From NCBI GenBank assembly GCA_963847625.1, contig CAWKAR010000050.1:78074-142073 (forward strand): a stretch of 64,000 nucleotides of DNA, given 5' to 3'. This DNA comes from a candidate division FCPU426 bacterium (lineage in GTDB: Bacteria > Oederibacteriota > Muellerivitia > Muellerivitales > Muellerivitaceae). A model generated the notes under the pieces. The model did no database searches, was not told where the DNA came from, and worked only from the letters and a program-made list of their open reading frames with translations. Every line of letters begins with the position of its first letter. The first letter of the stretch is position 1. Shown here piece by piece: positions 2,574 through 9,911 of the stretch. A program made the translations under genes and the position numbers.

Positions 2574-2636
2574 GTTCCTGCTGAATGTGGGCGGGTTATC
2601 TCCACAGATTTCTTATAAATCTGCACTGGCAATCAT

Positions 2637-2661
2637 TGCCCTCGGCTTGAAGCCTCGGGCA
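2637..2661. repeat. REP-like hairpin TGCCC-TC-GGCT-TGA-AGCC-TC-GGGCA
   Basis: Imperfect palindrome; 18/19 nt of its core recur at 4574-4592. Confidence 0.7.
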
Positions 2662-2677
2662 GCCAGCCCCTACCGGT

Positions 2678-2965
2678 AAATGACACTGGGTTTATGGGCG
2701 GGTTATCTCCCCTGCCGGCAAATGATACTGGGTTTGCGGGCGGGTTATCCCCCCTGTCGGCAAATGACACCGGGTTTGTGGGCGGGTTATCCCCCCTGTC
2801 GGCAAATGACACTGGGTTTGTGGGCGGGTTATCCTCCCTGCCGGTAAATGACACTGGGTTTGTGGACGGGTTATCTCCCCCTGCCGACAAATGACACTGG
2901 GAATGTGGGCGGTTTATCCTCCCTTCCGGCAGATGACACTGGGAATGTGGGCGGGTTATCCCCCC
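2678..2965. repeat. Seven tandem ~42-bp repeats (AAATGACACTGGGTTTGTGGGCGGGTTATCCCCCCTGYCGGC)
   Basis: Units start at 2678, 2720, 2762, 2804, 2846, 2889 and 2931. Confidence 0.95.
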
Positions 2966-2967
2966 AT

Positions 2968-3176
2968 ACTGGGTTACTCGCCTTTTATACTGGGTTGCTG
3001 GCTTCCAATAAAGGGTTCGCGGCTTCCAGCACTGGGTTCGCGGTTTCCAGCACTGGGTTCGCGGCTTCCAGCACTGGGTTCGCGGCTTCCAGCACTGGGT
3101 TCGCGGTTTCCAGCACTGGGTTCGCGGCTTCCAGCACTGGGTTCGCGGCCTCCAGCACTGGGTTCGCGGCCCTGTG
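2968..3176. repeat. Ten tandem 21-bp repeats (ACTGGGTTCGCGGCTTCCAGC); array resumes at 4540 beyond the IS
   Basis: Exact 21-bp period from 2968 to 3157; the first three units are degenerate. Confidence 0.95.
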
Positions 3177-4530
3177 GGTAGTGTATTTTTGGGGGGTGTA
3201 AAAAGAAGCGGGCGTAACATGGTGTTTGTCTAGAACGCCATATCCTTTTTGTGAAAGGAAGTTACGCCCATGAAGAATATACACCTAGCCTTACAGGCCT
3301 TGGCAAGAGAGAAAACTCAAGCCTGGGTGAAATCTGTGGTTGGAAGCCGTGAGGTCGGCGAATGGGTAGGAGAAGCCCTGAATCAACAACTTTCGGAGGC
3401 TTTCAACGCCCAGTTGAGGAAAGAACGGGATGAAGCGTTGAATCGCCAGCCATATGAAAGGCAGGAAGGAAGCCGGTATCGCAATGGGTTCAAGCGGATC
3501 CTAGTTGCTGGATTTCTGGGACCTTTGGTGCTGAAAAAGCCAGTTTTGAGGAAAGGCGGATTTGTTTCGGAAACTCTGACGGCATTGAGAGCTGGAAGCC
3601 AAGCCTTGGTGGGATTTCTGGGAATGAAGTTCTGGCTAAAGGGGGCTTCCACCCGGTCGGTGGCGGCAGGGCTAAACGAGGCCTTTGGAACTAAGCTGAC
3701 AGCCAATCACGTTAGCCAGATGACCAATGCCTTAAAACCTACCCTGGAAGCCTGGGCTAAACGGCTATTACCCACCGGGATTCAATACTTGTACTTGGAT
3801 GCCCTTTACCTGACGGTCAGGCGACAGGAAGCCGGTGTGAAACAAGCTTTGCTGGTGGCCATCGGGGTGGATGGGAACCTGAAGAGGCATTTTCTGGGGT
3901 ACATGGTGGGAGACCGTGAAAGTGAGTCGGCCTGGGAAGCCATGTTGGAAGACTTGTTGAACAGAGGCTTAGACAGAAAAAGCTTACGAATGGTGGTATC
4001 CGACGCCCACGGTGGAATTGTCGCGGCGGTGAAAAATCGTCTTGGAATCCCCCATCAATTATGCTTGGTACACAAGATGGAAAACGTCCGGTGTCGAGTG
4101 GCCCAGAAGGACAGAAAGGCATTCATGGCTGATTTCAAAGCGGTGTATTGGGCCGAAAGTCGAGAGAACGCCTTGGTGGCACTAGGAAGTCTCAAGGCTA
4201 AGTGGGCCAAAACCTATCCCAAAGCAGTGGAGATGGCAGAGGAAAAATTCGACTCCTATACGCAGTTTTTCCAGGAAGACCGGAAGTTTTGGAAGATTAC
4301 CCGCACCAGCAACCTAATCGAACGGCTTAACGAGGAGTTAAGGAAAAGGCTGAGGCCAGCGGGGATGATGCAGAACGAGCTGGAGATCGCCAAGTTGGTG
4401 TGGGGGGTAACCGAAACCCAACAACAAAATTGGAACAAGACTAAAGCCTACACCTCAAGAAGGGAGGCGGAGGTTCAAGCTGCTTGATTAAGACGCCCGT
4501 GGAAATTTACACCCAAAATATTGACGCAGG
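3177..4530 (+). mobile_element. IS256-family insertion sequence, ~1354 bp
   Basis: Transposase ORF; imperfect terminal IRs sharing GGGTGTAAA-N6-CGGGCGT; GGCCCTGTG duplicated at 3168-3176 and 4531-4539. Confidence 0.92.
3270..4487 (+). CDS. IS256/Mutator-family DDE transposase
   Basis: YRNG, YLYLDA, VVSDAH, QLCLVH and TSNLIERLNEE motifs. Confidence 0.95.
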   Translation: MKNIHLALQALAREKTQAWVKSVVGSREVGEWVGEALNQQLSEAFNAQLRKERDEALNRQPYERQEGSRYRNGFKRILVAGFLGPLVLKKPVLRKGGFVSETLTALRAGSQALVGFLGMKFWLKGASTRSVAAGLNEAFGTKLTANHVSQMTNALKPTLEAWAKRLLPTGIQYLYLDALYLTVRRQEAGVKQALLVAIGVDGNLKRHFLGYMVGDRESESAWEAMLEDLLNRGLDRKSLRMVVSDAHGGIVAAVKNRLGIPHQLCLVHKMENVRCRVAQKDRKAFMADFKAVYWAESRENALVALGSLKAKWAKTYPKAVEMAEEKFDSYTQFFQEDRKFWKITRTSNLIERLNEELRKRLRPAGMMQNELEIAKLVWGVTETQQQNWNKTKAYTSRREAEVQAA

Positions 4531-5946: not shown

Positions 5947-7275
5947 ATGAAAACCCGGGTTATTTTGTTTTTTCAATTTTTAGCGGCATTTATTGCCATG
6001 AGTTTAGCCGCTCAAGGTTGGGCCCAAAACATCATCGAGACGGATCTCGGGACACAACCACCCTCGATATTGGTCCAAAATCTCATGGGCGGCGGAATAG
6101 CCTTCAGCAACGTGATCTACCAGGGTACGGTGGAGTCGGCCGGCACCTTCACCGGGGGGAACGGCATCATCGGGTTTGATTCGGGAATCATCCTCAGTAC
6201 AGGACTTGCCGCCAGCGTCGTGGGCCCCAACGATCCGGGCGAGTGGTCCAACGATAACGGGGTGGCCGGTGACCCGGATTTAACAGCCCTTGCGGGTGGT
6301 GTTGACACCTATGACGCGACGGTCCTTTCCTTTGATTTTGTCCCGACTTACAACACGATTTCCTTTCAATACGTATTCGCCTCGGAAGAATATAACGCGT
6401 TCGTGGACTCGAGTTACAACGATGTTTTCGGTTTTTTCCTCAACGGGACCAACGTGGCCCTCATCCCCGGCACCACCACGATCGTGTCGGTCAACAATGT
6501 CAACGACTGCGTCAATTCCTCCTATTACATCGACAACGTCGGGAGTTCGCAGAACGGCGGATGCGCATTAAACGTCGCCTCGGCGAACCTGAACACCGCC
6601 ATGAACGGGTTAACCACGGTAATAACCGTGAACGCGCCCGTGAATCCGGGCGTGAACAATCATATCAAACTGGCCATCGCGGATGTGGCAGACGCATATT
6701 TGGACTCGAATGTCTTCATCCGCTCCAACAGTTTCGCCAGCGTCCTCACAAACACGCCAACGGCCACACCAACGGCAACCACCTCTCCCGCCCCGTCACC
6801 GACCCCGACCGATACACCCACGTTTACTTTTACGCCAACCGATACACCCACGTTTACTATTACGCCAACCGATACACCGACTTTCACTTCGACTCTTTCT
6901 TTTACCCCCACAGATTCTTTCACGCCGACGGCTTCTTTCACGCCGACAGCTTCTTTTACGCCCACTTCTTCTTTCACTCCAACAGTTACGCCCACGCCCA
7001 CTTGCGAAGTCCTTGTTTGGCCCGATCCCTATAACCCGGGCCGCGCGGTGGGAGGGGTGTTCAAGGTCAGTTGCATGCCCCCAGGCGCGGTCGTGAGCAT
7101 CTATACGCTCTCGGGCGAATACGTGAACCAGGCCGGGGAGTTGCGCGGAATGGTTGTTTGGGATGGCCGGAGCCAGTACGGTTCATACGTGTCATCCGGT
7201 GTCTATTATTATGTAGCCCAGCAAGGCGGAAAAACCCTCAAGAAGGGCAAGTTCCTGGTGACGAACGGTTATTGA
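5947..7275 (+). CDS. Secreted protein: choice-of-anchor-L-like domain, short Thr-rich stalk, FlgD/T9SS-like C-terminal domain
   Basis: Signal peptide; [23 protein letters not shown] and IKLAIAD motifs; (T-X)n for ~85 aa; ends WPDPYNP...IYTLSGE...WDG...SGVYYY...KFLV. Confidence 0.85.
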
Positions 7276-7407
7276 ACGGATAAGCCCGATATTTTATATT
7301 TGCAAGCATTGTTGTCCAAATAAAACAAAATCCAATGAACAAAGATAAATAAAATCAGTAATTCTTTAGTCTAAAAGACGTTAAGCAAAACCTAGTTCTA
7401 CGCCACA

Positions 7408-7481
7408 TGCCAATCTTCCATGAAGCTTATAAAGAGATTGGTATAGTACTGATCACATTATATTTTTATGGATGATCAGCA
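7408..7481 (+). mobile_element. 74-bp double-hairpin MITE-like element, copy 1
   Basis: TGCC..GGTA-TAG-TACT..AGCA, flanked by CA on both sides. Confidence 0.7.
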
Positions 7482-7496
7482 CAGATTCAGGGGATG

Positions 7497-7574
7497 TGCC
7501 GATTCACCCCCAAAGCAGTTAAGGAAATCGGTACTATACCGAACTTTCATTGAAAGCTTTAATGAGGTTCGGCA
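7497..7574 (-). mobile_element. 78-bp double-hairpin MITE-like element, copy 2 (inverted)
   Basis: TGCC..GGTA-CTA-TACC..GGCA, flanked by TG on both sides. The AAGCTT-containing hairpin is on the opposite side relative to copies 1 and 3. Confidence 0.7.
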
Positions 7575-7644
7575 TGAACTCGGATTGGCCAAAGAAAAAA
7601 GGCTTTAAATATTTATGTTTATTAAATCCCATGAATCCCATGTA

Positions 7645-7718
7645 TGCCAGCCTTCTATAAAGCTTTTAATGGGGCTGGTATCATACCGATCTCATTATGT
7701 TTTTATGGATGATCGGCA
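7645..7718 (+). mobile_element. 74-bp double-hairpin MITE-like element, copy 3
   Basis: TGCC..GGTA-TCA-TACC..GGCA, flanked by TA on both sides; 59/74 identical to copy 1 by hand alignment. Confidence 0.7.
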
Positions 7719-7818
7719 TATCCGTGGCTAGGTGTATTTTGGACAGGTGTGATTCGTAAGAGCAAACCGGAAGATTAAGCCAGCCGTAAATACCGAATTT
7801 ATTCCCCAAAGGATCAAC

Positions 7819-9787: not shown

Positions 9788-9911
9788 TAGCCACAGATGC
9801 ATGGGATTAATGGGATCTATTTAAAATTCAAAATTAAGAATTTAAAATTCATTCATGTGGTTTCCATGAATGTATTGGTTTATCTAAATGCATCCCCTGA
9901 ATCCGTGGCTA
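9788..9911. repeat. Uninterrupted copy of the palindromic host repeat, with internal heptamer tract
   Basis: TAGCCACAGAT...ATCCGTGGCTA terminal IR; AAAATTC-like 7-mers at 9821-9850; inner hairpin CATTCATG/CATGAATG. Confidence 0.8.

Follow-up and report, generated by a model that had tools for sequence, protein, structure and literature searches.

The window, by which we mean the entire 64,000-nucleotide stretch of DNA analysed here, comes from a genome that we designate G000 (other G numbers denote other genomes and L numbers denote extracted loci). It encodes an IS256/Mutator transposase (3270-4487 and 2633-3284) preceded by short tandem repeats, and a 442-amino acid secreted protein with Thr/Pro repeats (5947-7275) that has a weak match, below the cut-off, to CHU_C (type IX secretion signal-like). 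Beyond these genes, an inner palindromic repeat on the forward strand (7402-7730) is broken up by three small elements, each made of two hairpins separated by a 3-nt spacer.

The original prediction had placed three elements here with the flanking dinucleotides CA/CA, TG/TG and TA/TA, and we confirmed both the coordinates and the flanks. We refer to the flanking dinucleotide as the core and to the spacer as the guide. Element 1 (7408-7481, forward strand, 74 nt) comprises hairpin 1 (7408-7443), the guide TAG (7444-7446) and hairpin 2 (7447-7481), lies between CA cores at 7406-7407 (left) and 7482-7483 (right), and matches our covariance model with an E-value of 2.7e-20. Element 2 (7497-7574, 78 nt), also matched by the model, is inverted. 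On the minus strand it reads hairpin 1 (7574-7537), guide TAG (7536-7534) and hairpin 2 (7533-7497), with the left core at 7575-7576 and the right core at 7495-7496; its TG flanks are thus CA when read on that strand. Element 3 (7645-7718, forward strand, 74 nt) is a retargeted variant in which hairpin 1 (7645-7680) and hairpin 2 (7684-7718) enclose the guide TCA (7681-7683). Its left core, TA at 7643-7644, fits a T-N-A guide, and its right core is TA at 7719-7720.

When the elements are removed with one dinucleotide each, the two remaining arms align, as predicted, with the reverse complement of an empty copy of the palindrome (9788-9911, minus strand); the AT-rich middles differ. A metagenome contig skips exactly 76 nt at the right core of element 1, although its 15 differences in 87 nt mark it as a paralog. 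The host was correctly described as a palindrome, but its extent was not, as the palindrome sits inside a 445-bp block (7307-7751, forward strand) that measures ~210 bp without inserts and has CA...TG ends and ~15-bp terminal repeats. The block is flanked by a 9-bp duplication (7298-7306 and 7752-7760) that matches at 7 of 9 positions here, and it is missing in its entirety from the orthologous site of the sister genome G001. Among ten full copies of the ~210-bp host, the 9-bp flanking repeats match at 8-9 of 9 positions in seven and at 7 of 9 in three. Examples in G000 are at C49:15735 and on C38, C27, C33 and C25, and the left-arm motif of the inner palindrome is present 91 times in this genome. 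With its 9-bp duplication, the outer host looks like a separate DDE-like MITE, presumably IS4-like; no autonomous partner was found within 3.2 kb forms.

A family of paired hairpins

A strict pattern matched 62 times in the 4.43-Mb G000 assembly and not once in the reversed or the complemented genome, so the matches are not due to chance. A weight-matrix census identified 106 paired copies, a structure parser blind to core and spacer found 107 intact copies, and a profile search retrieved 148 loci, including degenerate, partial and long forms. The expectation of many copies was thus borne out, with at least 107 intact in G000. The family had not been recognized from the sequence, and there were no matches in Rfam; we found no description of it in the published literature, a comparison that did not extend to the consensus figures and supplements of REP surveys.

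In orientation, the unit reads core, hairpin 1, 3-nt spacer, hairpin 2, core, and is ~75 nt long. Hairpin 1 (35-38 nt) has the form TGCC...GGTA and hairpin 2 (mostly 35-37 nt) the form TACCGAT...ATCGGCA; over the family, hairpin lengths range from 34 to 43 nt. Each has an 8-bp stem, a one-base bulge on the outer arm and a variable AT-rich loop. We oriented 92 copies by the spacer and 14 by hairpin type. GAT occurs at stem positions 5-7 in ~90 of 106 copies of hairpin 2 and in none of hairpin 1, so that hairpin type confirms the orientation. The element is polar: read with hairpin 1 first, the core is CA/CA in 85 copies, CG/CG in 8, TA/TA in 4 and mixed in 9 (n = 106), and is never TG. Of the proposed targeting of YR dinucleotides, the matching 2-nt flanks stand (96 of 107 copies), but the notion that any YR will do does not.

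Pairing is local to each hairpin in 283/295 and 289/295 distinct sequences. Because the parser demands 7 of 8 pairs, this percentage is not itself evidence for the stems; covariation is. Stem positions covary (GC/AT, AT/GC/CG and CG/TA/AT), and in 68 diverse copies 90.6% of cells are paired compared with 83.5% after shuffling, with none of 500 shuffles reaching the score. Two-sided changes affect 15 of 22 pairs in the same set; kinship between sequences inflates these figures. Position 2 is G.T in hairpin 1 (284/295) and A.C in hairpin 2 (259/295); as A.C is G.T on the opposite strand, the design is two-fold symmetric and has no RNA polarity. In contrast to the local stems, the would-be terminal inverted repeat is paired at position 5 in 195/295 sequences, at position 7 in 23/295 and at position 8 in 94/295. 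The repeat fails after ~6 bp, which makes a DDE MITE unlikely, and terminal inverted repeats of 10 bp or more were not found.

Only 3 of 107 copies lie inside long ORFs. G001 carries perfect tandem arrays of up to eight identical units with one core per unit. In G000 we detected no autonomous version whose hairpins enclose a gene; unpaired halves there proved to be divergent or 139-143-nt branched forms. In these long forms (G000 C21:16261, 19641 and 25000; C40:94678; C57:103087; C63:92910; L092:5390-5574), hairpin 1 is swapped for a branched structure while the TGC...GTA base, the guide and hairpin 2 are kept. One HicA-like gene has a C-guide copy (G000 C3:40978-41052) within its 5' end that provides a new start codon.

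The spacer predicts the insertion site

The first spacer base is complementary to the second core base and the third to the first, with the middle base free. T-N-G spacers accompany CA, C-N-G spacers CG, and T-N-A spacers mostly TA. The earlier account of site choice did not include this rule. In G000, a C at spacer base 1 occurs with a G in the core at 9/9 left and 9/9 right flanks, as against 1/98 left and 4/98 right flanks otherwise, and the same association holds in regions fetched from G001 and G016 (6/6 versus 1/64); the copies in these counts are not independent. An A at spacer base 3 occurs with a T in the core at 4/5 left and 5/5 right flanks in G000, mostly at one host site, and in 0/2 cases in the fetched regions. 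The combination of C-guide and CG is found in 5 of 85 site families and in tandem contexts. Copies elsewhere include CG/CTG/CG with an unrelated hairpin 1 in another genus (L276), TA/TTA/TA in a further genus (L281) and, weakly, C-guide/CG outside the bacterial family (G048). The test was confined to genome loci because the pattern used to search metagenomes fixed CA at both ends.

The alleles of the host sites follow the rule. Among 95 empty alleles of host site 1, 78 have CG and 13 have CA; T-guide copies sit in the minority CA allele (9 CA/CA and 2 CA/CG) and C-guide copies in CG (3/3). Empty alleles of host site 3 comprise 3 TA, 48 CA and 42 AA. AA is never used, and A-guide copies occupy the rare TA allele. 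The TA/TA flanks at site 3 had been read as those expected of true target duplication, but they do not prove it, as empty TA alleles exist and the TCA spacer of element 3 predicts TA. The rule has exceptions (T-N-A with CA/CA and A-N-G with CA/CA, three each; G-A-G and T-C-C in old copies at the ftsE site described below; and CG/TAG/TA in L260), of a kind that mutation would produce in copies no longer active. We found no extension of guide pairing to target position -1 (p 0.74).

Adding the final base of hairpin 1 to the spacer gives a tetranucleotide, A-T-N-G, that stands at the 5' foot of hairpin 2 (A-T-A-G, A-T-C-G, A-T-T-G and A-T-G-G were seen, as were C/A variants). On the bottom strand, hairpin 1 is preceded by A-C-N-A, so that a single spacer would program both strands for the same base step. 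For the Marinomonas RAYT transposase, in vitro work describes how CA is selected by two bases, T2 and G4, of a tetranucleotide that precedes the hairpin on its 5' side, the third base being changeable and GTAC retargeting the enzyme to GA (PMC8266576); in E. coli, the break is reported to fall inside the dinucleotide (PMC3479197, PMC3333891). As a pattern in the sequences, the guide rule seen here is the T2/G4 rule shown in vitro for the RAYT transposase.

The guide rule also bears on the IS30-type reading offered in the original prediction. A classical DDE MITE (IS30/IS3-like) with a 2-bp target duplication would have the observed TG...CA ends and identical flanks, and the right end of an IS30-like element in G000 begins with GCCGAATT, resembling the element arms. 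The polar core, an internal spacer that predicts the target, and a terminal repeat that fails at positions 5-9 while the local stems hold all argue against it. The IS30-like element (37 copies, for example C13:137370-138422, with a 326-amino acid transposase and ends CCCGAG.../...TTCGGC) was rejected as a partner, since it makes a 3-bp duplication (31 of 37) at AT-rich targets. The rule largely refutes a DDE MITE, which we regard as very improbable. Two copies of the IS30-like element are inserted in the host MITE.

Empty sites, targets and predicted fold

The proposal of a non-autonomous mobile element is upheld by the many copies, the matching flanks and the presence of empty sites with one dinucleotide. 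We recovered empty look-alikes of 61 among the 99 target contexts, and most gap classes (102 of 120) measure 2 nt. An empty site has a single core, and an insert is bordered by one at either end. Near-identical copies occupy unrelated sites (C21:37909 and C3:6639 differ at four positions). Among copies with mixed flanks, wobble-type changes are about as frequent as other changes; such flanks are compatible with a carried core or with duplication followed by mutation.

The distribution of copies does not support the original proposal that the element homes to a single repeat family. Only 34 of 107 lie in the three sites of the host palindrome, so the small element is not specific to the host MITE, and the loci examined represent 85 site families. 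These families have no long target motif; what they share is the core and a weak Y-N-CA-N-R bias (pyrimidine at -2 in 64 of 85, 43 expected; purine at +2 in 58, 44 expected). Targets are structured, repeat-rich intergenic DNA. We rejected the idea that they lie in stems: the core is predicted to be paired in 21 of 105 targets compared with 78 of 210 background sites, though target neighbourhoods are more structured. Copies show a mild bias towards pointing at the downstream gene (66 of 104). Clusters of elements occur in L001 (G000 C3:25901-45900), L092, L099 and L101, amid small genes of toxin-antitoxin and accessory types (ParE, PIN, DUF433, DUF5615, HicAB, HepT, Fic, ORF6N and DUF4143) with several further palindromic repeat families at their borders.

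A miniature element of the IS110 family, with a 2-nt core and a bridge RNA supplied in trans, was the other affinity raised in the original prediction. The polarity of the unit, the core at either end, the insertion into palindromes and the three IS110 families of G000 would suit it. The element has no ends in common with those families (a/b/c; IS3-like ends did not match either), no long target motif, and a specificity that follows its own spacer, and we consider this the least credible of the explanations weighed here.

Folding with DNA energies predicts that a circle made of one unit and its core adopts a rod shape, with the core paired to the guide. Both core-guide pairs exceed p = 0.5 in 63 of 102 predicted circles for the top strand; the bottom strand gives 46 of 102 (median z about -4.5). 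The tandem arrays fit the copying of such a circle, as well as unequal recombination.

Distribution and an orthologous filled and empty site

Beyond G000, the covariance model matches 28 of 30 genomes in the bacterial family and, weakly, 2 of 68 genomes outside it in the same phylum. A 27-genome clade carries the element, which is absent or weak in the basal clade of G008, G012 and G017. Exact patterns matched 113 metagenome stretches and at least 21 genome loci, of which five without stems (L021, L025, L034, L038 and L039) were treated as chance; one genome-locus match is a Ca. Firestonebacteria record. The exact patterns had no matches in viral contigs. Outside the family, L264 (G048:C173) contains a divergent CG/CAG variant that recurs inside a longer spacer repeat; these repeats lie between short membrane/MORN-like genes in a cassette-array-like arrangement, and the contig may be mis-binned or transferred.

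Loci L307-L336 cover the start of a single-copy ftsE-like gene in 30 genomes. At the CA before its start codon, 7 of the 30 genomes, from five genera, have a full element. Relics occur in G005, G009 and G023, and probably in G011, G010, G006 and G074, while others (including G000, G001, G019, G075, G014 and G013) have one clean core. The anticipated empty alleles therefore exist, with an orthologous site filled in some lineages and reduced to a single clean core in sisters. On an FtsE+FtsX tree (30 rows, midpoint root, labels assigned by pattern and no monophyly test), at least five clades contain filled lineages interspersed with empty ones. Copies at this site have rare features in common, GACT (7/9 versus 20/316 elsewhere) and a GGAG end (9/9 versus 13/316), which favours one old insertion with repeated exact loss. 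Clean loss could also be due to replication slippage, as CATG is repeated there. In all nine copies seen, the element puts GGAG 9-12 nt before the ATG, possibly a co-opted ribosome site. The guide has decayed in three ftsE-site copies.

Such copies raise the question of whether the hairpins are kept for a role in the host, as RNA or DNA structure or as a ribosome site, with gene conversion and slippage spreading them passively along with the repeats that contain them. In favour are the persistence of stems despite highly diverse loops, the stems retained across genera at the ftsE site, where all nine copies close with GGAG ahead of the start codon, the residence of roughly one third of copies in a single host repeat, and the bias towards downstream genes. 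A host role leaves unexplained the joint change of spacer and both flanks, the choice of minority alleles and the 85 unrelated site families, and one G.T wobble per strand means that there is no RNA polarity. We find it improbable.

Search for the mobilizing enzyme

We did not find a cognate enzyme in the 31 family genomes examined, whose assemblies are 63-99% complete, nor a tnpAREP gene flanked by element hairpins, a search limited by the same incompleteness. G000 has only three Y1 genes (C39:22936, C24:100248 and C22:5162), which encode proteins of 311-349 amino acids with a C-terminal HTH and have their own GGGGTCAG repeats. They match descriptions of subclass 2.1/TIRYT (PMC6006769, PMC3733652) and were the only plausible candidates in a scan of G000 ORFs for HUH motifs. 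We rejected them as movers given their own repeats and a mismatched distribution; one adjoins an array in G001. TIRYT genes with GGGGTCAG terminal repeats have many copies in G001 and G072, and an IS110 family adjoins the repeats. Y1/RAYT models had no match in the element-rich genomes G021 (98% complete), G004 and G019 (99%) and did match the element-free G017 and G008. No element hairpins adjoin the IS200-type tnpA loci L062-L066 and L091, and the G000 assembly contains no IS200-type tnpA.

Integron integrase exceeded the TIGR02249 cut-off in 0/31 genomes, and reverse transcriptase is absent from the element-rich G001, G016, G006 and G021. A Y2 search matched 0/31 genomes; as its control gave no signal either, this result carries no information. 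Pfam annotation of 150 of 285 representatives revealed no recurrent enzyme among neighbouring genes, which are ordinary or of toxin-antitoxin type. No autonomous insertion sequence with the ends and duplication length of the element was found among multi-copy rve and IS110 families.

Integron integrase and XerC, in the case of CTX phage, are tyrosine recombinases that act on folded single strands. An enzyme of this kind could recombine the rod-shaped circle at a junction CGG-CACATG-CCG with mismatches and one extrahelical base. The rod fold, the 6-nt spacer between inverted CGG/CCG arms, the weak symmetric target bias at -2/+2 and the occurrence of tyrosine recombinases in 30 of 31 genomes are consistent with it. 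The junctions, by contrast, fall at the central dinucleotide and not at the spacer edge, attC boxes are lacking alongside the integron integrase, and the TTATGCCG arms of the G000 RIT element are spaced differently. We think such a recombinase unlikely. The RIT element and tRNA-type integrases were rejected as candidates because of wrong geometry and lack of linkage (one of eight tRNA-type integrases is near an element). The RIT element (G000 C20:38660-42150) encodes three tyrosine recombinases and has TTATGCCG ends; in its flank, a TTATGCCG...CGGCATAA palindrome forms a site with a 6-bp spacer. G000 has 18 tyrosine-recombinase matches, none a typical ~300-amino acid XerC/XerD pair, and a 345-amino acid Xer-like protein at C60:99931.

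A further explanation is that the mover belongs to an undescribed protein family, unrelated to Y1 and to known recombinases, and was acquired where the 27-genome clade arose. This agrees with the presence of the element in 28 of 30 family genomes and its absence or weakness in the basal clade, and with the finding that Y1, reverse transcriptase and IntI do not track it. The argument is one of absence of evidence, drawn from incomplete assemblies and, for Y2, a silent control, and the enzyme may be transient or lost, as described for tnpAREP in some E. coli (PMC3333891). We rate this as quite unlikely.

A guide-directed model and its relation to known systems

We favour, with moderate confidence, a non-autonomous element of folded single-stranded DNA whose DNA guide is part of its own sequence and whose movement relies on HUH-like chemistry. 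The mobile unit would be hairpin 1, the 3-nt spacer, hairpin 2 and one core dinucleotide. Each strand would present a REP-like hairpin with a 5'-foot tetranucleotide, A-T-N-G on top and its overlapping complement on the bottom, an arrangement that may amount to a tail-to-tail REP dimer with overlapping guides. A Y1/RAYT-like HUH enzyme acting in trans would nick single-stranded DNA at the dinucleotide set by guide bases 2 and 4, release a ~76-nt single-stranded circle and reseal the donor. The circle would then insert at another accessible CA, or at CG or TA for guide variants, and the 2-bp repeat would be a common core and not a filled-in duplication. Copies on the G-rich strand (55 of 107) show no bias, as expected from published accounts if both strands are substrates (PMC3333891). 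Against the HUH reading stand the failure to find a cognate enzyme, a tag other than GT[AG]G and Y1 genes that do not track the element. More tentatively, the element may be a self-guided ~76-nt circle parasite with a rod fold, in which the 3-nt guide programs its own ends and its target on either strand. Natural reprogramming from CA to CG or TA, precise excision and an enzyme not recognizable as Y1, Y2, IntI or reverse transcriptase would then point to a new class of DNA-guided recombinase.

The family offers natural evidence that the internal guide and the insertion site of a repeat change together. PMC8266576 and PMC3733652 describe the spread of REP/BIME-type repeats as unresolved, and guide-directed site choice is described there for one RAYT, in vitro only (PMC8266576). 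The exact unit boundaries, the predicted circle and the filled and empty orthologous alleles make a model of excision, circularization and insertion directly testable. If the missing enzyme is new, this would be a very small DNA-guided insertion system.

Like DDE MITEs (IS30, IS3), the element is short and non-coding, with TG...CA ends and a 2-nt flanking repeat; unlike them, it has no real terminal inverted repeat and its internal spacer sets the target. With integron attC sites and other folded Xer substrates it has in common structure conserved over sequence, an extrahelical base and a core completed by flanking DNA. The attC boxes are RYYYAAC/GTTRRRY, whereas the element consensus has no R boxes, IntI is found in 0/31 genomes and the unit contains no gene. 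PATEs are non-autonomous IS200/IS605 derivatives, and as in IS200/IS605 ends and derivatives a guide 5' of the hairpin would select the site. The element appears to differ in its 2-nt core (a 4-5-nt site in IS200/IS605) and in one guide that would serve both ends; no strand specificity was seen, and the IS200 tnpA genes of the bacterial family have no such hairpins alongside. In IS200/IS605, the DNA guide 5' of the hairpin is described as picking the cut site, with precise excision via a single-stranded circle (PMC3333891, PMC5027513).

The closest likeness is to REP/BIME (REPIN) sequences and RAYT/TnpA-REP, in particular the Marinomonas Mb system (PMC8266576) and tail-to-tail REP dimers (PMC3733652). 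Common to both are imperfect, bulged hairpins within 20-50 nt with a conserved mismatch or bulge, a 5'-foot tetranucleotide whose bases 2 and 4 predict a CA site, and two inverted hairpins, so that each strand carries one, as in a dimer of REP and inverted REP. Many intergenic copies, tandem arrays and insertion into other palindromes are also common to both. A REP is defined by GT[AG]G as its 5'-foot tetranucleotide (PMC6006769), whereas the tag of the element is A-T-N-G and varies naturally with the target. The two guides of the element overlap in one 3-nt spacer, the unit ends precisely at the hairpin feet, and no adjoining tnpAREP was found. Although the lack of a GT[AG]G tag and of a flanking tnpAREP means that the element is not a member by definition, it is best read as working like a RAYT-type REP dimer.
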